NCBI GenBank assembly: GCA_036390755.1
Contig: DASWBH010000020.1
Span: forward strand, 1 to 59,821
Direction of reading: 5' to 3'
Source of the DNA: Thermoanaerobaculia bacterium
Lineage (GTDB): Bacteria; Acidobacteriota; Thermoanaerobaculia; Gp7-AA8
DNA length: 59,821 nt
In this document: positions 1-12,117 of the stretch, in pieces
Numbering within the stretch: position 1 is the stretch's first letter
How the letters are laid out: every line of letters begins with the position of its first letter
Translations under genes and position numbers: made by a program
Notes under the pieces: model-generated
What the model saw: only the letters and a program-made list of their open reading frames with translations
Told to the model about the DNA's origin: nothing
Databases searched by the model: none

Positions 1-272
1 CGCTCCTCCGGCAGATGCCGGACGTTGATCAACATGACGACGAAGAGAAACAGCACCATGATGCCGCCGGCGTAGACGAGCACCTGGACGGCCGCGACGA
101 ACTCCGCGGACTCGAGCACGAACAGGACGGCAACGCACAGAAACGTGAGCAGGAGGAACAACGCCGAGTGCACCGGGTTGCGCATCGCGATCACGAGGAT
201 CGACGAAGCCACCGCGATCGTCCCGATGACGAGGAACACCAGCAGAGGCATGTTCTGCGTTAATGCGTCCAT
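1..272 (-). CDS. nuoJ: NADH-quinone oxidoreductase subunit J, 5' part (runs off window edge)
   Basis: Manual translation MDALTQNMPLLVFLVIGTIAVASSILVIAMRNPVHSALFL...AEFVAAVQVLVYAGGIMVLFLFVVML matches the NuoJ/ND6 motif; follows nuoI. Confidence 0.93.
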   Translation of the reverse strand, partial: MDALTQNMPLLVFLVIGTIAVASSILVIAMRNPVHSALFLLLTFLCVAVLFVLESAEFVAAVQVLVYAGGIMVLFLFVVMLINVRHLPEE

Positions 273-287
273 TCCGTTCCTGTCCAA

Positions 288-377
288 AGGATGACGGATG
301 AAGGATGAAGGATGAATCCGATGCGGCGGTCGGTGCGTCGATTCATCTTTCAGCCTTCATCCTTCATCCTTCATCCT
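288..377. repeat. Inverted pair of heptamer arrays, (AGGATGA)x4 ... (TCATCCT)x5, long hairpin overlapping the nuoI stop
   Basis: Units read directly at 288-315 and 343-377. Confidence 0.9.
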
Positions 378-910
378 TCGATGAGCTTCTGCCCTTCGAT
401 CGCGCGAGGCTCCTCCCCTTCTTCCGGCGGCAGGCCCGTGTAGCGCGGCTTGTCGTCCCAGTATTCGAGCTCCTGCATATTGAAGTAGAGATCGTTGCGA
501 TCGTACGTCGCGAGCTCGTACGTCTTCGACGTCAGCCAGATCGACTTCGGCTTTGTCGGGCACGCCTCTTCGCAGAGCGCGCAGAACATGCATCGCTTGA
601 CGTCGATGTCATAGCGGTCCAGCACCTTCATCTTTTTCTGCTTGCCGTCGACGTCGCGCATCTCGTCGTGGACGTCGATGTAGATGATGTCGATCGGGCA
701 CGCCACCGCGCAGAGCTTGCACGCGATGCAGCGGTCATACGAGAAGCGGAACATTCCGCGGAAACGGTCCGCGGGTTCCATCCGCTCTTCCGGATAACGG
801 ATCGTCACCTTCGGCTTGAACAGCTCCTTGAACGTCGTCTTCAGACCTTCGAGGAGGTCGAGCAGAAGGAAGCGGTCGGTCCAGCTAGACTTCGGATACT
901 CGACTTGCAT
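371..910 (-). CDS. nuoI: NADH-quinone oxidoreductase subunit I
   Basis: TIRYPEE motif; two 4Fe-4S motifs CIACKLCAVACP and CMFCALCEEACP; start moved to MQVEYPK at 910. Confidence 0.95.
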   Translation of the reverse strand: MQVEYPKSSWTDRFLLLDLLEGLKTTFKELFKPKVTIRYPEERMEPADRFRGMFRFSYDRCIACKLCAVACPIDIIYIDVHDEMRDVDGKQKKMKVLDRYDIDVKRCMFCALCEEACPTKPKSIWLTSKTYELATYDRNDLYFNMQELEYWDDKPRYTGLPPEEGEEPRAIEGQKLIEG

Positions 911-2048
911 GAGCCACCTGGCGCGGCGCCGCTCTTGGCCCGCGCACCACGAGTGCAATGGTTGCGATGAGAACGACCGCCCCGAATACCGACAGCAGCC
1001 ACTCTGCACCGGCGAGAACGAGAATGCCCGTCACGGCGATATTGCCCAGTGCGAGCGGGATCAGCCACTTCCATCCTAGATCCATGAGTTGATCGAACCG
1101 GAAGCGCGGGAACGTCGCGCGGAACCAGATGTAGACGACCATGAAGATCATCACCTTCACGGTGAAGATCACGGTCCCGATGATGCCGCCGAGAAGGCCC
1201 CAGCTTTGGAGCACCGCCGTCGTCAATCCGATCTGATGGTGCGCGCTGCCGACGACGCCTCCGAGGGTCCAGCCGCCGAAGTAGAGGCTGACCATCAGGC
1301 ACGAGTTCACGAGCATCATCGAATACTCGGACAGCATGAAGAAGGCGAACTTCATTCCGGAGTACTCGGTGTGGAATCCGGCGACGAGCTCCGATTCCGC
1401 TTCCGGCAGATCGAATGGCGTGCGGTTGTTCTCCGCGTTCATCGCCACGAAGAAGATGAAGCAGGCCACGAGCTGCGGGAGCACGTTCCAGACGTTGCGC
1501 TCCTGATACTCGACGATCTTCACAAGGTCGAGCGACCCGCAGAGCATCAGCACCCCGATGATCGACAGTCCGAACGGCACTTCGTACGAGACCATCTGCG
1601 CCGCGGAGCGCAGGCCGCCCATCAGCGAGTATTTGTTGTTCGATGCCCAGCCGCCGAGGATGATGCCGTACACGCCCGTCGAGGTGAGGGCGAGGATCAG
1701 CAGCAGCGCGACGTTGACGCGCGCGGCGATGAACGTCGGCGGCGGACCGAACGGAATCAGACAGAACACCACGAACGCCGGCAGCAGCGGCAGCATCGGC
1801 CCGAGGAAGTACGCGACCTTCTCCGCGCTGCTCGGAAGGATGTCTTCCTTGAGCAGCAGCTTCACCGGATCGGCGATCGCCTGCAGCAACCCGTACGGCC
1901 CGACGCGGTTCGGTCCGAGGCGCGCCTGAATGAATCCGAGCATGCGGCGCTCGATCCAGGTCATCGCCATCACGATCAGCTGAACGATGACGAACGCGAT
2001 GAGGAACTTGACGAGAGGGAAGACGAGGTAGCGGAGCCAGGGGTTCAT
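885..2048 (-). CDS. nuoH: NADH-quinone oxidoreductase subunit H
   Basis: ERRMLGFIQARLGPNRVGPYGLLQAIADPVKLLLKE; NRTPFDLPEAESELVAGFHTEYSG. Confidence 0.97.
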   Translation of the reverse strand: MNPWLRYLVFPLVKFLIAFVIVQLIVMAMTWIERRMLGFIQARLGPNRVGPYGLLQAIADPVKLLLKEDILPSSAEKVAYFLGPMLPLLPAFVVFCLIPFGPPPTFIAARVNVALLLILALTSTGVYGIILGGWASNNKYSLMGGLRSAAQMVSYEVPFGLSIIGVLMLCGSLDLVKIVEYQERNVWNVLPQLVACFIFFVAMNAENNRTPFDLPEAESELVAGFHTEYSGMKFAFFMLSEYSMMLVNSCLMVSLYFGGWTLGGVVGSAHHQIGLTTAVLQSWGLLGGIIGTVIFTVKVMIFMVVYIWFRATFPRFRFDQLMDLGWKWLIPLALGNIAVTGILVLAGAEWLLSVFGAVVLIATIALVVRGPRAAPRQVAHASRVSEV

Positions 2049-3160
2049 CGGTCCACCTCGCCCAGCACAATATCAATGGTCCCGATTAGCGCGACGAGAT
2101 CCGATACGAGGTGCCCGCGCGCCATGGCCGGCAGCGCCTGCAGGTTCACAAACGACGGCGGCCGCACATGGCAGCGGTACGCGTTCTGCGATTTTCCGTC
2201 GGAGATGATGTAGTAGCCGAGCTCGCCCTTCGGCGACTCGATCGAGTGGTAAACCTCGCCTTCCGGCGGACGCACAACGCGCGAGATCTTCGCTTTGATC
2301 TCGCCTGGATTCGTCGCGCGGATCATCGGCATGCACTGCTTGAGGATCCGGTTCGACTGCCGCATTTCCTCCATGCGGACGAGGTAGCGGTCATACGTGT
2401 CGCCGTTCTTCCCGATGGGGATGTCGAATTCGATGTCGGGATAGCACTCGTACGGCTGCGCGCGGCGGAGGTCCCACTCGACCCCGGATCCGCGCAGCGG
2501 CGGTCCCGTGATGCCCCAGTCGATTGCCTCTTCCGGCGAGAGCACGCCGATGCCGACCGTGCGGCGCTTCCAGATGCGATTGTTGGTCAGCAGCGACTCG
2601 TATTCGTCGACCGCCGCATCGAACTTCGCGCAGAACTTCTCGAGGTCCTCGAGCCAGCCCGGCGGAAGATCGTCCGGCATGCCGCCGATGCGCATGCAGT
2701 TGAGCGTCAGGCGCGCGCCGCAGTAGCTCTCGAAAAGATCGAGCACCTCTTCGCGCTCGCGGAAGCAGTAGAAGAACGGCGTCATCGCGCCGATGTCGAT
2801 CGCGTGCGTGGCCAGCCAGAGCAGATGCGATGAGATCCGCTGCAACTCCGAAAGCATGACGCGCATGAGCTGGGCGCGCTTCGGAATCTGCGCGGTGACG
2901 CCCATCAGCTTCTCGACCGCTTCGACGAACCCGAGGTTGTTGGTGGCGGAGGCGACGTAGTCCATGCGGTCCGTGTGCGGTATGCACTGCGGATACGCCA
3001 TGTGCTCGAAGAGTTTTTCGGTTCCGCGATGGAGATAGCCGATGATCGGCTTCGCTTCGATGATGCGCTCGCCGTCGACTTTGAGCAGCACCCGCAGCAC
3101 GCCGTGCGTGGACGGGTGCTGGGGACCGAAGTTGACCTCCATCTCGTGTACGTCGAACAT
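2045..3160 (-). CDS. nuoD: NADH-quinone oxidoreductase subunit D
   Basis: NFGPQHPSTHGVLR, GYLHRGTEK, DRMDY, C-terminal IDIVLGEVDR; no NiFe-binding CxxC. Confidence 0.97.
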   Translation of the reverse strand: MFDVHEMEVNFGPQHPSTHGVLRVLLKVDGERIIEAKPIIGYLHRGTEKLFEHMAYPQCIPHTDRMDYVASATNNLGFVEAVEKLMGVTAQIPKRAQLMRVMLSELQRISSHLLWLATHAIDIGAMTPFFYCFREREEVLDLFESYCGARLTLNCMRIGGMPDDLPPGWLEDLEKFCAKFDAAVDEYESLLTNNRIWKRRTVGIGVLSPEEAIDWGITGPPLRGSGVEWDLRRAQPYECYPDIEFDIPIGKNGDTYDRYLVRMEEMRQSNRILKQCMPMIRATNPGEIKAKISRVVRPPEGEVYHSIESPKGELGYYIISDGKSQNAYRCHVRPPSFVNLQALPAMARGHLVSDLVALIGTIDIVLGEVDR

Positions 3161-3169
3161 AGGTACCGG

Positions 3170-4174
3170 TTACCCTTTGCCCTCCGCGACCAGCTTCTTC
3201 AACATGCTCTCCGTTTCCTCCTCACCGGGAACACACAACGTGAGGTCCTTCGTCTCTCCTGTCGCAATCGCGGCAGCGTAGCCTTCGCAGTCCCAGCCGC
3301 AGGCGGTGCAGTCGGTCTGCGCCATCGCGGCGAACAGCTTGTCTTTGAGCGATCCCTTCTCCGCCATTTTCATCCGGTCGGGCATCGGCAGATCGGGGTT
3401 GTGCCACGGCGCTTCTTCGCTCGGCTTCGCAGTTTCGGCGACGACCGCGGCGAGCTCCGGCGAGGGCGGCTGCTGGGTCTTCGCAGCGGCGCGCTGACCG
3501 GCGATCTCCGCGATCGGCCACGTGCCGTACCGGTTCCAGTCACCTTTATAGATGTTGACGTCTTTGACGTCCTTCCCCGTCGATCCCGCTTTCGGTCCGC
3601 CGCCGGCGGGAAAGACTTCGGGATAGATCCGGGCGCCGGTGTCGATGCCGCGGACGGGGAAGTCTTTGCGCAGCGGATGTCCGTTGAATCCTTCCCACAT
3701 CAGGATGCGCTCGAGATTCGGATGCCCGTCGAACTGGATGCCGAACATGTCGAACGTCTCGCGCTCGTGCCAGTTCGCCGTCTTCCAGACCGAGGAGACT
3801 GAGGGGACCGGAGTGGCTTCGTCGGTGAAGACGCGCAGTCTCACGCGCTTGTTCTTCTCGAACGAATAGAGCGTGTAGGTCACGCCGAAGCGCGGGCCGG
3901 CGTACGCGGGATATTTCGAGTAGTCGACCCCGCAGAGATCGACGAGATATGTGAAGCTTTCCTCTTTGAAGATGCGGCAGACCTCCGCGAGTCGCTCGCG
4001 TTTCACGACCAGCGTGATCTCGCCGGCGAACTCCTTCGCGTCCGAAACCGCATCCCACGCGCGCGACACCGGGATCACGACGAGCGGATCGCGCTTGATC
4101 TCGCTCGGATCGCGCTTCGGCGGTCCGGCCGGCGCGGCCGGCTTCGGTGCCGGAGTGTGCGGCGCGTCCGTCAT
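3170..4174 (-). CDS. nuoC: NuoC with C-terminal 4-Cys putative Fe-S domain
   Basis: [48 protein letters not shown]; tail [36 protein letters not shown]. Confidence 0.95.
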
Positions 4175-5208
4175 GAGCCGCCTTCGAACTCCTTCCCGGC
4201 TTCGGTCATGAGCTTCTTCAGCATGTCGAGCGTTTCAGTTTCGCCCGGGGTGCAGAGCGAGATGTCCTTCGTCTCGCCCGAGGCGAGTGCCTTCGCGTAA
4301 CCCTCGCAATCCCAACCGCACGCGGCGCAGTCGGTCTGAGCCATCGCGGCGAACAGCTTCGTCTCCAGCTTGCCGCCCATCTCGTCGGCCATCTGCATGC
4401 GCTCGTCGAGCGTGAGCGTGTCCTTGTGGAACGGAACGGCGGGCGATGCGACATCCTTCGCTTCGCCGGGAACGACTTCGGGCGCGGCCGCTTCCAACAC
4501 CGCCGTCGCAGTGCCAGCGCTCTCCGCTTGTGCAGCGGACGCGGCCGCAGCTGCCGCCGCTGGTGGTGCAGGCTTCGGCGCCGGCTTCGGCGTCGCATCG
4601 CGCTTCACGCCGGAAATCGGCGCCGGGCGCAGTTGCGCCTGCGCTTGTTCGACGCGAAGTGCCGGACCTTCGTGCACCGGCCGGATCGAGTCGCGGACCG
4701 CAGCGCGTGCGAAGTCGTATGCTTCGCCGCCTTTCCGCAGGATGTGCATCTTCTCGATCTTTTTCTGCAGCTCCATCAGTCCCCAGATCAACGCTTCCGG
4801 TCGCGGCGGACAACCGGGGATGTAGACGTCGACAGGAATCAGGCGATCGACTCCCTGCGTCACCGCGTAGGTGTCGTAAGGTCCGCCGCAGGTCGCGCAG
4901 GAGCCCATGGCGATGACCCACTTCGGCTCCGGCATCTGGTCCCAAAGGCGGCGGACGATCGGCGCCATCTTCTCGGTCACCGTTCCGGAGACGATCATCA
5001 GATCGGCCTGCCGCGGAGTGGCGCGGAACACTTCTGCGCCGAAGCGCGCCATGTCATGCCGCGGGTCGAGAACGGCCATCATCTCGATGGCGCAGCACGC
5101 CAGGCCGAACTGCATCGGCCACAGCGACGACTTACGGGCCCAGTTGAAGAATTTATCGACGGTGGTGGTGAGGACGTTCGAGTCGAAGCGATTCTCGATC
5201 AGACCCAT
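4171..5208 (-). CDS. nuoB: NuoB with Ala/Pro linker and C-terminal 4-Cys putative Fe-S domain
   Basis: [39 protein letters not shown]; tail [36 protein letters not shown]; start MGLIENRF at 5208. Confidence 0.95.
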
Positions 5209-5558
5209 GTGAGGACCTTCCTCTTCCAGGCGTAGAAGTAACCGATCAGGAGAATCGCAAGAAAGATTGCCATCTCGACAGCTCCGAACCAGCCGAGCTG
5301 CCTGAACCGGATCGCCCACGGGAAGAGGAACACCGTCTCCACATCGAACACGATGAACAGAACCGCGATGAGGAAGTACCGCACGGAGAAACGATGGTCG
5401 AACGCCAGCGACGTCGCCGGCACACCGCATTCGTACGGCTCGAGCTTGACCTTGTTCGCGCGCGAGGCGCGAATCAGAGGAGTGATGATGAAAAGCGTGA
5501 GAACCGGTACGGAAATGACGATGAGGAAAGCAATTGGAATGACTGAATAGTTCGCCAT
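5199..5558 (-). CDS. nuoA: NADH-quinone oxidoreductase subunit A
   Basis: [34 protein letters not shown]. Confidence 0.96.
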
Positions 5559-5621: not shown

Positions 5622-6707
5622 TCAGTAGAGTTTCCGCTGGAACGTCCACCCGTCCCGCGGAACGGCGCGGGCCTGCACGAGGACCCGGATGTCCTCTCCG
5701 ATCCCATCGGGCAAAATCAGCCGGCGAGCGTTTTCCTTCTGATGCAAACCTTCGACGGAGTCGGGCTGACCCTGAATCAGCCGATGTTCGGCTGCGCCGA
5801 GCGCGAGGAGAAACTTCGCCTGGCGGTCGAAGAAGAGAGTGTGAAACGCCGCTTGCTCGCCCGCCCGGATCAGATCGGTGAAGTTGATATGCGCAGTGAT
5901 GTCCTGCTCGCCCGGTGACGCGAGCAGGTCCCGCGTCACCCGCTGCGCGTGGTACGACGCCGCCGTTCCGAACCTTCGAATGCGGCTGCTGAAGAGCTGC
6001 TCCTGCGGAAAACCGTAGTCGAACGTGACGATCAGCCCACGGCGCACGAAGGCGCAGAGGTCGCGGTAGTACGCCTCCCATTCGAGCGAGATATCGGCGA
6101 ATTGACCGTCGCTCAACGCGATTCGGCGCGCCGAGAAGTAATCCTCGTACGCACCGGGCGCCTCATGCTCGGTCCAGTCGAGCTCGCCGTCTCGATCGGT
6201 GACCCACAGCTCGTGCAGGTGCTCGTCGCGCTGAACGAGTCGCGCGAACGGCAGCGCGTCAAACAGCTCGTTCGCCAGGACGAGATGCGCGCCATCCCGG
6301 GGCACCTCCTCAATCGTTCGCACAAAGTGAAGCGCCGCATTCGATTGCGCTTCAGGCGAGAGTCGCTCGAGCGAACGGTCAACGCCATAGAACCGAACCG
6401 AGGACCGAGGACCGAGGACCGAGGACAATGAGAGGAGGAGCGAACCGTCGCCGCAGCCGACGTCCACGACCGTGGACACCACGTCGCCTGCGCGGCTCGA
6501 AAGATCGCGGATGAGGACGCTCAGACTATCGGCGAATAGCGGGCTGAGGCGCGGGGAGGTGACGTAATCAGCTTCAGGCCGCGCCCGCTTCGCGTAATAG
6601 CCGAAATCGGGATGATAGAGGGCCAGCTCGACGAAGTCGCGGAACGGTAAGTCATTGTCGCGGAGCAGGTTGTGAATGACAGCGGCCAGCGGTCCCGACC
6701 CGGGCAT
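5622..6707 (-). CDS. SAM-dependent methyltransferase, MidA/NDUFAF7 (DUF185) family
   Basis: [62 protein letters not shown]. Confidence 0.9.
6397..6424. repeat. (ACCGAGG)x4 heptamer array inside the methyltransferase CDS
   Basis: Four perfect tandem units; encode [10 protein letters not shown] on the minus strand. Confidence 0.9.
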
Positions 6708-6854: not shown

Positions 6855-7505
6855 ATGAAGCAGTTCATCGCAGCAATTCTCGCCATCATGCTCGTCGCTC
6901 CGGCGGCGTTCGCACAGACGGTCGACGACCACGCCAAAGCGAAGCGCGGCGCGGCAATCGGCGGAGTCGCCGGCGCCATCGTCGGCGGCGTTCTCGGCAA
7001 CAACCGCGGAAAGGGCAACGGAACGCGCGGTGCCGTCATCGGCGGCGCCGTTGGCGTAGCGACCGGCGCGATCGTCGGCGCGATGATGGACAAGCAGGAG
7101 CGCGAGCTCCGGCAGATCGAAGGCGTCAACGTGCAGCGCGTCGGCAACGACGAGCTGAAGGTCACGGTCAAGAACGAAGTGCTCTTCGACTTCAACTCCG
7201 CTGCTCTGCGCAGTGCGTCGCGTGACTCGCTCACCCAGATGGCCGATGTGTTCCAGAAATATCCCGACACGACGATCAACGTTGAGGGTCACACGGACTC
7301 GATCGGCTCCGCGTCGTACAACCAGCGCCTCTCCGAGCGTCGCGCCGAATCGGTCGCCCGCTACCTCGAGAACCTCGGCGTCCGCAGTTCGCGCATCAAC
7401 GCGATCGGCTACGGTAAGTCGCAGCCGCGCGCGTCCAACAGCACGGCCAACGGCCGCCAGCTCAACCGGCGCGTGGAGATTCACGTCAAGGCCAACGCCG
7501 CGTAA
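6855..7505 (+). CDS. OmpA-family protein with glycine zipper (YiaD-like), SPI-type signal
   Basis: GAAIGGVAGAIVGG zipper; EGHTDSIGSASYNQRLSERRA and GRQLNRRVEI motifs; RBS GGAGG. Confidence 0.93.
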   Translation: MKQFIAAILAIMLVAPAAFAQTVDDHAKAKRGAAIGGVAGAIVGGVLGNNRGKGNGTRGAVIGGAVGVATGAIVGAMMDKQERELRQIEGVNVQRVGNDELKVTVKNEVLFDFNSAALRSASRDSLTQMADVFQKYPDTTINVEGHTDSIGSASYNQRLSERRAESVARYLENLGVRSSRINAIGYGKSQPRASNSTANGRQLNRRVEIHVKANAA

Positions 7506-7531
7506 TGCGATAGGTACTGATCGTGAATGAG

Positions 7532-7566
7532 AAAGGGACGCTCGGCGACGAGCGTCTTTTTCTTTT
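7532..7566 (+). terminator. Rho-independent terminator between the two OmpA genes
   Basis: GACGCTCG-GCGA-CGAGCGTC followed by TTTTTCTTTT. Confidence 0.8.
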
Positions 7567-7578
7567 CTGGAGGACGTG

Positions 7579-8229
7579 ATGATCCGTAAAGCATCTGTCG
7601 TACTCGTGGCAACCTTGCTCGTGATGGCCTGCTCCAGCACCAAGGACGATCCGAACGAGAAGGCCAAGCGCGGAGCCGGCATCGGGGCGGCCGCCGGTGC
7701 CGTGGCCGGAGCGGTGATCGGCAATCAATCGGGAAACAACCGGACCGGCGCAGTGGCCGGCGCGGCGGTGGGTGCCGCCGTCGGTGCGGCGATCGGCCAT
7801 CGCATGGACAAGCAGGAGCAGGAGCTCCGCCAGATTCAGGGCGTCGAAGTGACGCGTCCGTCCCAGGGTGAGATCGACGTACGCCTCACGAGCGACATCC
7901 TTTTCGATGTCGACTCGGCGGCGTTGCGTCCCGAATCGCGAACGACGCTTCGCGAGCTCGCGACCAACTTCCAGCGATATCCGGACGAATTGGTCGACGT
8001 CGAGGGACACACCGACTCGACCGGCACGACCGAGCACAATCAGGGCCTGTCGGAGCGCCGCGCCGGCTCCGTTCGCGACTATCTGGTCGATCAGGGGGTC
8101 GCCGCGCGGGACATCACCGCTGTCGGGTACGGTGAAACCCGGCCGAAGGCGTCGAACTCGACGCCGGAAGGGCGGCAGCTCAACCGCCGCGTGGAGATTC
8201 ACATTCGCGCGAATCCAACTGCAAGTTAG
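7579..8229 (+). CDS. OmpA-family lipoprotein with glycine zipper (YiaD-like)
   Basis: Lipobox LVMA-C; EGHTDSTG...NQGLSERRA; GRQLNRRVEI. Confidence 0.93.
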   Translation: MIRKASVVLVATLLVMACSSTKDDPNEKAKRGAGIGAAAGAVAGAVIGNQSGNNRTGAVAGAAVGAAVGAAIGHRMDKQEQELRQIQGVEVTRPSQGEIDVRLTSDILFDVDSAALRPESRTTLRELATNFQRYPDELVDVEGHTDSTGTTEHNQGLSERRAGSVRDYLVDQGVAARDITAVGYGETRPKASNSTPEGRQLNRRVEIHIRANPTAS

Positions 8230-9507: not shown

Positions 9508-9597
9508 CAAAGCCGGCTGAATCGGCTAGAATCCGCCCGCCCTTTCGGGTGCCGGGATGCGATTCGGCGCCCTTTCAGCACAATCAACGGAGGCACC

Positions 9598-12117
9598 ATG
9601 AAGCCCTGGATCATGCGCGCGCTGCTGCTCGCGATCGTTACGGTTCTCGCGACCGGCACCGTCGCGATGGCGCAGGAGTCTCACCCCGCGGCGAACCCCG
9701 CTGTCGCTCCGAACGAGTCCCAGCCGGCAGCGCATCCGACCGAAGCACGGAGCGAAGCGAGCCTGGTGCTGCCGGATTTGCGGAGCGTGTCGTTTCTCGG
9801 CATCAGCGGCCAGGCCCTCCTCACGGCCGGTCTCTTCATCTGCTTCCTCGGACTCGTGTTCGGTCTCGTCATCTACACCCAGCTCAAGAACCTCGCCGTG
9901 CATCGCTCGATGCTCGAGATCTCCGAGCTGATTTACGAGACCTGCAAGACGTACCTGATCACTCAGGGCAAGTTCATCCTGCTGCTGGAAGTCTTCATCG
10001 GCACGATCATGGTCGTTTACTTCGGCTTCCTGCGGCACTTCGAGCCGCTGCGCGTCGTCATCATCCTTCTCTTCAGCCTCATCGGCATCGGCGGCAGCTA
10101 CGGCGTGGCGTGGTTCGGCATCCGGATCAACACCTTCGCAAACTCGCGCACCGCCTTCGCGTCGCTGCGCGGCAAACCGTATCCGACCTACTCGATCCCG
10201 CTGAAAGCCGGCATGTCCATCGGCATGCTCCTGATCTCGACCGAGCTCGTGATCATGCTCTGCATCCTGCTGTGGGTGCCGCGCGATTACGCCGGACCGT
10301 GCTTCATCGGCTTCGCCATCGGCGAGTCGCTCGGCGCGGCCGCGCTGCGCATCGCCGGCGGCATCTTCACGAAGATCGCCGACATCGGCTCCGACCTCAT
10401 GAAGATCGTCTTCAACATCAAGGAAGACGACGCGCGCAACCCCGGCGTCATCGCCGATTGCACGGGTGACAATGCCGGCGACTCGGTCGGACCGACCGCC
10501 GACGGTTTCGAAACCTATGGCGTGACCGGCGTCGCGCTCATCACGTTCATCCTCCTCGCGGTGACCTCGCCGGGGGTGCAGACGCAGCTCCTCGTCTGGA
10601 TCTTCGCCATGCGCGTCATCATGATCATCACCGCCGGGCTGTCGTACTTCATCAACCAGGCCTTCGCCGGCGCGCGCTACGGCAACGCCGACTCGTTCAA
10701 CTTCGAAGCGCCGCTGACCACGCTGGTGTGGCTGACGTCGATGATCTCGATCGCCCTCACGTACGCGATCTCGTACGTGCTGATTCCGATCGTCGGCGGC
10801 GATCCGACGATGTGGTGGAAGCTGTCGACGATCATCACCTGCGGCACGCTGGCAGGCGCGATCATCCCCGAGCTCGTGAAGGTCTTCACCTCGACCGAGT
10901 CGCGTCACGTTCAGGAAGTCGTGACGGCGTCGCGTGAAGGCGGCGCATCGCTGAACATCCTGGCGGGCTTCATCGCCGGAAACTTCAGCGCCTATTGGAT
11001 GGGCCTCACCATCACCGTTCTGATGGGCGTTGCGGCGTGGATCAGCAGCCAATTCCCGACCGGCGCAGGAGCGCTGATGATCGCTCCGGCCGTCTTCTCC
11101 TTCGGTCTCGTCGCGTTCGGATTCCTCGGCATGGGGCCGGTGACGATCGCAGTCGACTCGTATGGTCCGGTCACCGACAACGCGCAGTCGGTCTTCGAGC
11201 TTTCCACCATCGAGACGCTCCCCGGAATCGAGGAGGAGATCCAGCGCGACTTCGGTTTTCGCCCGCAGTTCGAGCGCGGCAAGCAGTTCCTCGAGGAGAA
11301 CGACGGCGCCGGCAACACGTTCAAGGCCACGGCCAAGCCCGTGCTCATCGGCACAGCCGTCGTCGGCGCAACGACGATGATCTTCTCCATCATCGTCATC
11401 CTGACCAAGGGCCTCACGGTCGACATGGACAAGCTCTCGATCCTCCACCCGCAATTCCTCCTCGGACTCATCATGGGTGGTGCGGTGATCTACTGGTTCA
11501 CCGGCGCGGCCACGCAGGCCGTATCGACGGGCGCCTATCGCGCGGTCGAGTTCATCAAAGCGAATATCCATCTCGAATCCGGCGCGACGAAAGCTTCGGT
11601 CGAAGATTCGAAGAAAGTCGTCGAGATCTGTACGCAGTACGCGCAGAAGGGCATGCTCAACATCTTCCTGACCATATTCTTCTCGACGCTCGCCTTCGCC
11701 TGTTTCGAGCCATTCTTCTTCATCGGCTACCTGATCTCGATCGCGCTGTTCGGCCTCTACCAGGCGATTTTCATGGCCAACGCCGGCGGCGCGTGGGACA
11801 ACGCCAAGAAGATCGTCGAGGTCGAGCTGAAGGAGAAGGGTTCCGCGCTTCACGCTGCGACGATCGTCGGCGACACGGTCGGCGATCCGTTCAAAGACAC
11901 GTCGTCGGTGGCGATGAACCCGGTCATCAAGTTCACAACGCTGTTCGGACTGCTCGCCGTCGAGTTGGCGGTCGAGATGACGAAAGCCGGACAAGAAGGG
12001 CTTACTCGCATTCTGTCGGCGATTTTCCTGGCAATCGCGCTCGTGTTCGTCTATCGGTCGTTCTACGCAATGCGCATTCAAAGCGAGGAGCCCCAGCGCA
12101 AACCAGTCGTCGCTTAG
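9598..12117 (+). CDS. hppA: Membrane-bound pyrophosphatase, K+-independent type, probably H+-pumping
   Basis: GGIFTKIADIGSDLMK, EDDARNPGVIAD, GNTFKA (Lys at the Ala/Lys determinant), NAGGAWDNAKK, GDTVGDPFKDT. Confidence 0.95.
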   Translation: MKPWIMRALLLAIVTVLATGTVAMAQESHPAANPAVAPNESQPAAHPTEARSEASLVLPDLRSVSFLGISGQALLTAGLFICFLGLVFGLVIYTQLKNLAVHRSMLEISELIYETCKTYLITQGKFILLLEVFIGTIMVVYFGFLRHFEPLRVVIILLFSLIGIGGSYGVAWFGIRINTFANSRTAFASLRGKPYPTYSIPLKAGMSIGMLLISTELVIMLCILLWVPRDYAGPCFIGFAIGESLGAAALRIAGGIFTKIADIGSDLMKIVFNIKEDDARNPGVIADCTGDNAGDSVGPTADGFETYGVTGVALITFILLAVTSPGVQTQLLVWIFAMRVIMIITAGLSYFINQAFAGARYGNADSFNFEAPLTTLVWLTSMISIALTYAISYVLIPIVGGDPTMWWKLSTIITCGTLAGAIIPELVKVFTSTESRHVQEVVTASREGGASLNILAGFIAGNFSAYWMGLTITVLMGVAAWISSQFPTGAGALMIAPAVFSFGLVAFGFLGMGPVTIAVDSYGPVTDNAQSVFELSTIETLPGIEEEIQRDFGFRPQFERGKQFLEENDGAGNTFKATAKPVLIGTAVVGATTMIFSIIVILTKGLTVDMDKLSILHPQFLLGLIMGGAVIYWFTGAATQAVSTGAYRAVEFIKANIHLESGATKASVEDSKKVVEICTQYAQKGMLNIFLTIFFSTLAFACFEPFFFIGYLISIALFGLYQAIFMANAGGAWDNAKKIVEVELKEKGSALHAATIVGDTVGDPFKDTSSVAMNPVIKFTTLFGLLAVELAVEMTKAGQEGLTRILSAIFLAIALVFVYRSFYAMRIQSEEPQRKPVVA

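Follow-up and report, generated by a model that had tools for sequence, protein, structure and literature searches.

Operon layout in the window

We analyzed a stretch of 59 821 nt from a Thermoanaerobaculia bacterium (contig DASWBH010000020.1), below called the window, in which an operon for respiratory complex I encodes two core subunits, NuoB and NuoC, that both end in the same kind of four-Cys domain. The list of open reading frames (ORFs) and tblastn mapping place the nuo genes on the minus strand in the order A-B-C-D-H-I-J, up to the window edge; with a methyltransferase gene, midA, in front of them the layout is midA-nuoABCDHIJ(KLMN), KLMN lying beyond the window. This is the first part of a complex I-like operon for 11 subunits (NuoABCDHIJKLMN) in a Thermoanaerobaculia bacterium (Acidobacteriota) from soil. 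Soil metagenomes contain the nuoB-nuoC nucleotide sequence, and the closest protein relatives are labeled as Thermoanaerobaculia, a class of the Acidobacteriota.

The genes of the NADH-oxidizing N-module, nuoE, nuoF and nuoG, are missing from the operon, as had been claimed in the original prediction, a reading of this DNA made without database searches. The nuoH gene adjoins nuoD directly, so that there is no nuoE, nuoF or nuoG at that place in the operon, and the Escherichia coli NuoE, NuoF and NuoG proteins used as tblastn queries (E-value ≤1e-6) gave zero matches in the 59.8-kb window or in any of the 84 loci compared with it.

The window proteins are true NuoB and NuoC. The core of NuoB is ordinary: it matches PF01058 and the NCBIfam NuoB models (E-values ≤1e-70), and its motifs CC38-39, GSC104 and GC133PP match the ligands of cluster N2. 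With these N2 motifs and two CxxCxxCxxxCP motifs in NuoI for clusters N6a and N6b, the cluster ligand motifs are intact.

C-terminal domains of NuoB and NuoC

Both NuoB and NuoC end in a module of ~80 residues with four Cys in the spacing Cx2Cx3Cx17C; the ends read ...[47 protein letters not shown]...CTPG in NuoB and ...[45 protein letters not shown]...CVPG in NuoC. Over 121 residues the two tails share 51% identity (BLASTP, E = 5e-32), and their DNA is 74% identical over 149 nt (3192-3340 versus 4211-4359). The original prediction had noticed both the four-Cys tails and their likeness at the DNA level, and on these points it read the two proteins correctly. It had also placed both tails on long Ala/Pro-rich linkers, which is right for NuoB (Table 1), where the linker has 74-104 residues in orthologues (median 92), and wrong for NuoC, where the 48-residue conserved segment is followed by ~31 variable residues. 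The length of NuoC is 314-336 aa in all of the 120 best homologues.

According to profile scores the tails are members of PF04060, the family that had been suggested for them: taken alone, they score 26.4 (NuoB) and 27.0 bits (NuoC) against a cutoff of 23, while the full proteins give 24.9 bits for NuoB and 22.9 bits, marginally under the cutoff, for NuoC. The resemblance to CysJ-like flavoproteins, also named in the original prediction, was recovered as well, since positions 33-146 (out of 539) of the NCBIfam model NF004859 (PRK06214, ‘sulfite reductase subunit alpha’) match both tails, with E-values of 2.6e-27 for NuoB and 8.3e-31 for NuoC. A third model, TIGR01944 (rnfB), has a local match to both tails (E = 1.7e-8 for NuoB). 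We did not adopt either of the latter two identities. The TIGR01944 scores, 34.2 and 34.9 bits, are far below the cutoff of 68.7, with only positions ~29-90 of 190 aligned, and the Fer4 domains expected of RnfB are missing; the NF004859 scores, 95.7 and 107.2 bits, are far below the cutoff of 432, and what is shared with that family is one domain. A domain scan found no Fer4, FAD_binding_1 or NAD_binding_1 in the tails.

The AlphaFold2 model of the NuoC FeS domain alone has five helices, with a mean predicted local distance difference test (pLDDT) value of 90.1 and a predicted template modeling score of 0.80. In the model of full-length NuoC the core is moderately confident, residues 154-251 have mostly pLDDT <50 and the tail is intermediate; the low-pLDDT segments are consistent with disorder, or with order only inside the complex. 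Within them the extension at residues 177-224 ([30 protein letters not shown]...) has low pLDDT in the isolated-chain model despite being nearly invariant, and it may serve as an interface peculiar to complexes of this kind.

Table 1. Genes and protein segments of the midA-nuo region (window coordinates)
Feature	Position	Strand	Evidence or remark
nuoJ, 5' part, cut by window edge	1..236	-	tblastn with E. coli NuoJ matches 24-236
nuoI	371..910	-	Fer4 families; CxxCxxCxxxCP motifs at residues 61 and 107 (clusters N6a/N6b)
nuoH	885..2048	-	directly after nuoD
nuoD	2045..3160	-	ORF; mapped in all loci; between nuoC and nuoH without gap genes
nuoC, 334 aa, core + conserved extension + short linker + FeS domain	3170..4174	-	PF00329 residues 56-176 (E = 9.3e-46); PF04060 residues 286-316
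NuoC FeS domain, residues 256-334	3173..3409	-	Cys 289, 292, 296, 314 at 3233-3310; PF04060
NuoC variable linker, residues 225-255 (~31 residues)	3410..3502	-	variable among orthologues
NuoC post-core extension, residues 177-224 ([25 protein letters not shown]...), 48 residues	3503..3646	-	nearly invariant in 40 orthologues
nuoB, 345 aa, core + Ala/Pro linker + FeS domain	4171..5208	-	PF01058 residues 38-147 (E = 1.2e-29); PF04060 residues 291-321
NuoB FeS domain, residues 259-345	4174..4434	-	Cys 294, 297, 301, 319 at 4252-4329; PF04060
NuoB linker, residues 161-256 (96 residues, 30% Ala, 14% Pro)	4441..4728	-	composition
NuoB core, residues 1-160	4729..5208	-	N2 ligand-type motifs CC38-39, GSC, GCPP
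nuoA	5199..5558	-	ORF; tblastn maps nuoA in all related loci; homologue in locus L003 has PF00507
midA, MidA/NDUFAF7-type S-adenosylmethionine-dependent methyltransferase gene	5622..6707	-	PF02636 Methyltransf_28 (E = 3.4e-28); directly upstream of nuoA

Domain family and its architectures

An exhaustive HMMER search with the NuoC tail against 1.84 billion cluster representatives returned 429 proteins at E ≤1e-3, with 241 of them at E ≤1e-10. Judged by these sequences, the domain family is small and sharply defined: along with the four Cys, all real members have in common the motif WHD..RM..AE....L.AAMAQ.DC..CG..C..Y..A...G.....L..C.PG..ET. A word-indexed search with the 80-aa tail, returning only fragments of 50-139 aa and small gene calls, was uninformative for architecture. 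In databases such proteins are named ‘NADH-quinone oxidoreductase subunit C’, ‘(Fe-S)-binding protein’, ‘hypothetical protein’ or, misleadingly, ‘sulfite reductase flavoprotein’.

Most of the listed representatives long enough to judge have the domain at the N-terminus, an architecture that we call FeS-FNR after the ferredoxin-NADP reductase (FNR) type of module; FAD_binding_1 and NAD_binding_1 stand behind the domain in all three FeS-FNR proteins scanned. The domains linked to complex I form a distinct subclass (AAMAQTDC[TG]ACG[YW]DCEGY) and are acidic, with a net charge of -5 to -11, compared with -1 in one FNR-type example. To this subclass belong NuoC-FeS, NuoB-FeS and NuoI-FeS fusions as well as proteins of ~250 aa with a helical N-domain and an acidic linker.

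The NuoI-FeS fusion is a protein of 348 aa from a metagenome contig (P0223; P and L numbers denote our proteins and loci). A linker of ~170 residues, rich in Ala, Pro and Lys, stands ahead of its C-terminal FeS domain. Downstream of its gene we saw mreB-mreC and not nuoJ, and the nuo genes may be split in this organism.

The same FeS domain was also observed in an Acidobacteriota protein family of ~221 aa, behind an uncharacterized N-domain with CPQD...CP[RK]C (L062-L064, L066, L067, L070-L072, L075, L077-L079, L081 and L084, at around 9570-10245). No nuo genes adjoin the genes of these proteins, and the neighbors (GAPDH, metallo-beta-lactamase, diacylglycerol kinase and DsbD) give no clue to function.

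Two further candidates were discarded. A 590-aa protein with ‘9 stretches’ (P0217) is a spurious hit, a coiled-coil repeat protein without Cys. A protein with three tandem domains (P0200) was not accepted as a stand-alone architecture, because its end resembles the tandem NuoB tail of locus L058 (see below) and it is probably a fragmentary gene call.

Distribution among genomes and nuo operons without nuoEFG

A scan with a profile of the complex I-linked subclass, run over GTDB with each species represented by a single genome, confirmed 242 stretches. Of these the best 80, in 78 loci, were examined; the loci are 20-kb pieces, and what is said on absence of nuoEFG covers these pieces and the window. 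Nuo subunits were mapped by tblastn, with NuoE, NuoF, NuoG and NuoJ-NuoN queries from E. coli and queries for the other subunits from the window. Almost all of the best 80 stretches came from metagenome-assembled genomes (MAGs) of Thermoanaerobaculia or other Acidobacteriota, with one from the Phycisphaeraceae.

About 65 Thermoanaerobaculia/Acidobacteriota nuo loci with the domain were found, every one of them with the layout (midA-)nuoABCDHIJKLMN and zero NuoE, NuoF or NuoG matches; complete A-N gene sets are present in L007, L010, L013 and many others. Where the genes were complete, NuoB and NuoC had one and one FeS domain in 30 loci, none and one in 20, one and none in six, and two and one in a single locus. 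The NuoB gene of L058 (positions 1-1040), cut by the contig end, codes for at least four tandem FeS domains joined by ~45-residue Ala/Pro linkers, and a further domain is on NuoC; the two tandem arrays known to us, in L058 and L060, are of the subtype Cx2Cx4Cx16C. The number of FeS domains per complex goes from one to at least five, so that the two clusters of the original prediction are not a constant feature; the domains may be on NuoB, NuoC, NuoI or a separate subunit.

As to individual loci, NuoB of L060 has two tandem FeS domains besides the domain on NuoC. A NuoB without FeS domain, in loci where NuoC alone has a tail (e.g. L008, L019, L026, L029-L032), usually keeps a post-core extension of 62-89 residues; it looks as if a linker was kept after loss of the domain or was present before its gain. 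In another lineage (P0208 in L003) the domain is on NuoC only and NuoB is plain.

In Planctomycetota the order nuo(A)BCDHIJKLMN, with nuoH directly after nuoD, is followed immediately after nuoN by a 12th gene for a ~250-aa FeS protein. This layout is seen in L001, L005/6, L073 (9464-10231), L086 (10001-10759), L087 and L088, and a Pfam scan of L086-L088 also found no nuoE, nuoF or nuoG. In the product, an uncharacterized helical N-domain is joined by an acidic linker to the same FeS domain. The ~250-aa family has about 55 clusters, all unnamed or labeled ‘(Fe-S)-binding protein’; one member (P0215 in L002) was not called beside annotated nuo genes.

Altogether, the architecture recurs only in nuo operons without nuoEFG, in the about 65 Acidobacteriota loci and in the Planctomycetota loci, which bears out the correlation that the original prediction had asked for. 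As the fusions recur in dozens of independent MAGs, we rejected the possibility of an assembly or frameshift artifact.

These observations bear on a non-catalytic role, in which the domains would be redox or O2 sensors, or would help in assembly of the Fe-S subunits or in delivery of clusters to them, outside of the electron path. Four-Cys [4Fe-4S] domains do serve as O2 or redox sensors in other proteins, and the operon encodes a methyltransferase, MidA, of a type connected with complex I assembly. Still, neither tandem multiplication nor placement on several carrier subunits nor strict association with N-module-less operons in two phyla would be expected of such aids, and the known homologues are all electron carriers; we regard this role as quite improbable.

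Conservation and history of the two tails

Loss of the tail Cys in orthologues, named in the original prediction as a sign against it, was not seen: the four Cys are present in every complex I-linked domain recovered. Across 19 diverse complex I-linked domains, and again across 40 NuoC orthologues, there is no variation at the four Cys or at about 20 further positions; the pattern Cx2Cx3Cx17C appears in 94 orthologous domains and in almost all of the representatives listed. A Zn ion can also be held by four Cys, and one could imagine a structural Zn knuckle, or even an inert appendage, with no redox function. However, characterized members of the matched family bind [4Fe-4S] clusters, about 20 non-Cys positions are strongly conserved across phyla and two separate paralogues have been kept, all of which makes such an appendage very improbable.

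We compared 37 B-type with 57 C-type domains. Mean identity was 0.76 between B-type domains and 0.78 between C-type domains; between the two types it was 0.62, both within the same genome and between different genomes. This equality shows no recent tandem duplication or gene conversion between the tails, and we rejected both. On sequence identity, the B-type and C-type tails are old paralogues, kept separately.

Proposed role as a tethered electron entry

The variable length of the Ala/Pro linkers, the variable copy number, the use of different peripheral-arm subunits, the acidity of the domains and the strictly nuoEFG-less context lead us to a model of tethered ferredoxins. With a probability of roughly 0.55, the domains are ferredoxin-like [4Fe-4S] carriers on tethers that feed a complex I devoid of the N-module and replace this module; that the domains bind a cluster, where they dock, what reduces them and which way the electrons flow are what we infer in this model. 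Each tail domain would bind one [4Fe-4S] cluster and be a built-in ferredoxin on its tether. Single electrons would be taken up from one or more cytoplasmic donors, which could be a 2-oxoacid:ferredoxin oxidoreductase, a hydrogenase, an FNR-type NAD(P)H oxidoreductase or a soluble ferredoxin. The loaded domain would then dock near N6a, the outermost cluster of NuoI, from which electrons would run through N6b and N2 to quinone. The NuoB domain could work as a long-range swinging arm on its ~95-residue Ala/Pro linker, and the NuoC domain, on a short linker behind the conserved extension, may, speculatively, sit nearer to the complex.

With one to at least five domains placed on NuoB, NuoC, NuoI or a separate subunit, mobile carriers would fit better than two fixed relay clusters. 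A variable dosage of domains would, by analogy, be typical of swinging-arm carriers, and the acidity of the Nuo-linked domains is ferredoxin-like. One could suggest instead that the domains are a permanent link or docking platform that wires a separately encoded dehydrogenase (NuoEF/HoxEFU-like, FNR-like or a hydrogenase) to NuoI. The nearly invariant 48-residue extension of NuoC with its short (~31 aa) linker does suggest a defined position on the complex, and NF004859-type proteins natively pair the same domain with an FNR module. A single relay site is nevertheless hard to fit with the changing number and carriers of the domain, the NuoB linkers are long, Ala/Pro-rich and variable in length, and no partner gene is conserved near the operon; we consider a fixed adaptor unlikely.

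The tethered carriers could also supply low-potential electrons to cytoplasmic enzymes, in the way that nitrogenase is served by Rnf and Fix, rather than receive them, if the complex ran in reverse and used quinol and the proton-motive force to reduce an acceptor of low potential. The sequence is compatible with either direction, and both complex I and Rnf are reversible, with the RnfB homologue working both ways (PMC9588780). Such an output role seems improbable, as the related 11-subunit enzymes studied so far are quinone reducers (PMC11238625) and the operon has no linked gene for a consumer of low-potential electrons such as nitrogenase or CO2 reductase.

Several observations weigh against a tethered electron entry. 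There is no conserved donor gene beside the operon, where only the genes for H+-translocating pyrophosphatase, OmpA-like proteins, SGL and UPF0047 are syntenic, and tblastn searches with the FNR halves of three FeS-FNR proteins found no FNR-like genes in the window or in the 84 loci. No RNA-seq runs covering the region were found. Searched against PDB with Foldseek, the domain model had no match at E <1, an outcome not out of the ordinary for a cofactor-dependent domain of 75 residues; the fold-level link to RnfB and to the corrinoid iron-sulfur protein (CoFeSP) therefore rests on sequence profiles with modest E-values, such as 0.037 in the search of PDB sequences with the domain profile, where residues 26-87 of Azotobacter vinelandii RnfB (8ahx_B) were aligned with all four Cys. 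Moreover, the loci were found via the domain itself, so that this sample says nothing on the share of Thermoanaerobaculia without tails, and a recent survey states that most Acidobacteriota have a complete complex I.

A wider statement of the model would be that a swinging-arm ferredoxin, made of one to at least five [4Fe-4S] domains on NuoB, NuoC, NuoI or a 12th subunit, is the entry device of N-module-less complex I in at least two phyla; low-potential electrons would then pass straight from cytoplasmic oxidoreductases into the pump, with no soluble carrier in between. To this we would give slightly less than even odds.

Neighboring genes

The position of midA upstream of nuoA is kept in ~50 Thermoanaerobaculia loci (among L007-L083). 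Mitochondrial NDUFAF7 methylates an Arg residue of the NuoD homologue. We saw an HGVLR motif near the N-terminus of the window NuoD and, given that midA is in the operon, a bacterial counterpart of this Arg methylation may exist here.

Divergently from the midA-nuo operon, on the plus strand of the window, lie two paralogous OmpA/Gly-zipper lipoprotein-like genes and a gene for the H+-translocating pyrophosphatase (6855-8229 and 9598-12117). These genes are syntenic with the operon in 30-41 related loci.

Implications

We found no description of a NuoB or NuoC with PF04060-type tails in the literature searched, in agreement with the original prediction, whose author knew of no complex I of this architecture. 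For bacterial 11-subunit complex I, a published study describes the direct donor as unknown, and a search for a common donor protein failed (PMC11238625). The tails are a candidate input device that is built into the core subunits and conserved in many species, and that another phylum has as a separate subunit encoded in the operon; if our model is true, it would give, for these lineages, a concrete and testable answer to the question of what feeds the 11-subunit complex I. The ~80-residue domain is a defined target for biochemical and structural work. Also, PF04060 fused to PF01058 or PF00329, or encoded after nuoN, can be used as a genomic marker that sets apart a class of complex I occurring in Planctomycetota and among the abundant Acidobacteriota of soils.

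Comparison with known systems

The closest sequence relatives of the tails are the CysJ-like FeS-FNR proteins (NF004859), with about 50% identity over ~75 residues, including WHD..RM..AE and AAMAQ.DC..CGY. They differ in that the domain is N-terminal to FAD_binding_1 and NAD_binding_1, while the Nuo tails are without a flavin domain. In CysJ-type reductases a mobile flavin mononucleotide domain holds the position that the FeS domain takes in FeS-FNR proteins. We see here the same domain exchanged between FNR-type reductases and complex I.

Complex I without N-module, fed by a lineage-specific input, has precedents. In function, photosynthetic NDH-1, the flavodoxin-dependent complex I of Campylobacter and the mobile Fe-S domains of Rnf/Nqr come closest to the tails. 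The ferredoxin of cyanobacterial and chloroplast NDH-1 is soluble and bound through the extra subunits NdhS/V/O. This photosynthetic complex I has 11 core subunits and no NuoEFG, and its donor at the NdhI end is a small acidic Fe-S protein, ferredoxin (PMC7021789, PMC8433477). In contrast to NDH-1, the tail domains are covalently tethered and belong to a fold family different from that of its ferredoxin. In archaeal Fpo the input goes via FpoF, and FpoO is encoded by an extra last gene. For Campylobacter complex I, a published account names flavodoxin as the electron source. Campylobacter and Fpo resemble the tail-bearing complexes in having replaced the N-module, and the extra end gene of Fpo parallels the 12th gene of Planctomycetota; unlike the tails, their devices have no sequence relationship to PF04060 and no fusion to NuoB or NuoC.

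Small carriers on Ala/Pro-rich linkers in variable tandem copies are also known from the lipoyl domains of the E2 component of 2-oxoacid dehydrogenases. Their likeness to the tandem FeS domains is an analogy only, as cofactor and chemistry differ and there is no homology.

Within PF04060, the N-terminal domain of the CoFeSP large subunit (CdhE/AcsC) is a founding member. The CoFeSP cluster domain, on a flexible tether, mediates one-electron transfer. Unlike the tails, it is part of a TIM-barrel/corrinoid protein and not of a respiratory complex, and the PDB profile search gave no direct sequence match between CoFeSP and our domain.

Another close parallel is the FdI domain of RnfB, which shares with the tails PF04060, a four-Cys pattern with all Cys aligned and a small helical form. 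In the Rnf complex of Clostridium tetanomorphum this domain lies between two flexible, solvent-exposed linkers and was too mobile to be modeled in the cryo-electron microscopy map; it was proposed to carry electrons from one to the other of two sites, a fixed cluster and the Fe site in the membrane, by a swinging motion, and its fold is related to that of the CoFeSP [4Fe-4S] domain (PMC9588780). RnfB differs from the tails in having an N-terminal transmembrane anchor and in continuing into Fer4 domains, whereas the tails are C-terminal on complex I subunits, single or in tandem; the Cys spacing differs too, the aligned RnfB having x4 after its second Cys and x16 after its third, where the tails, with Cx2Cx3Cx17C, have x3 and x17. 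If the model proposed here is true, complex I of these bacteria would join Rnf/Nqr as a second respiratory machine in which a mobile Fe-S domain works on a tether.

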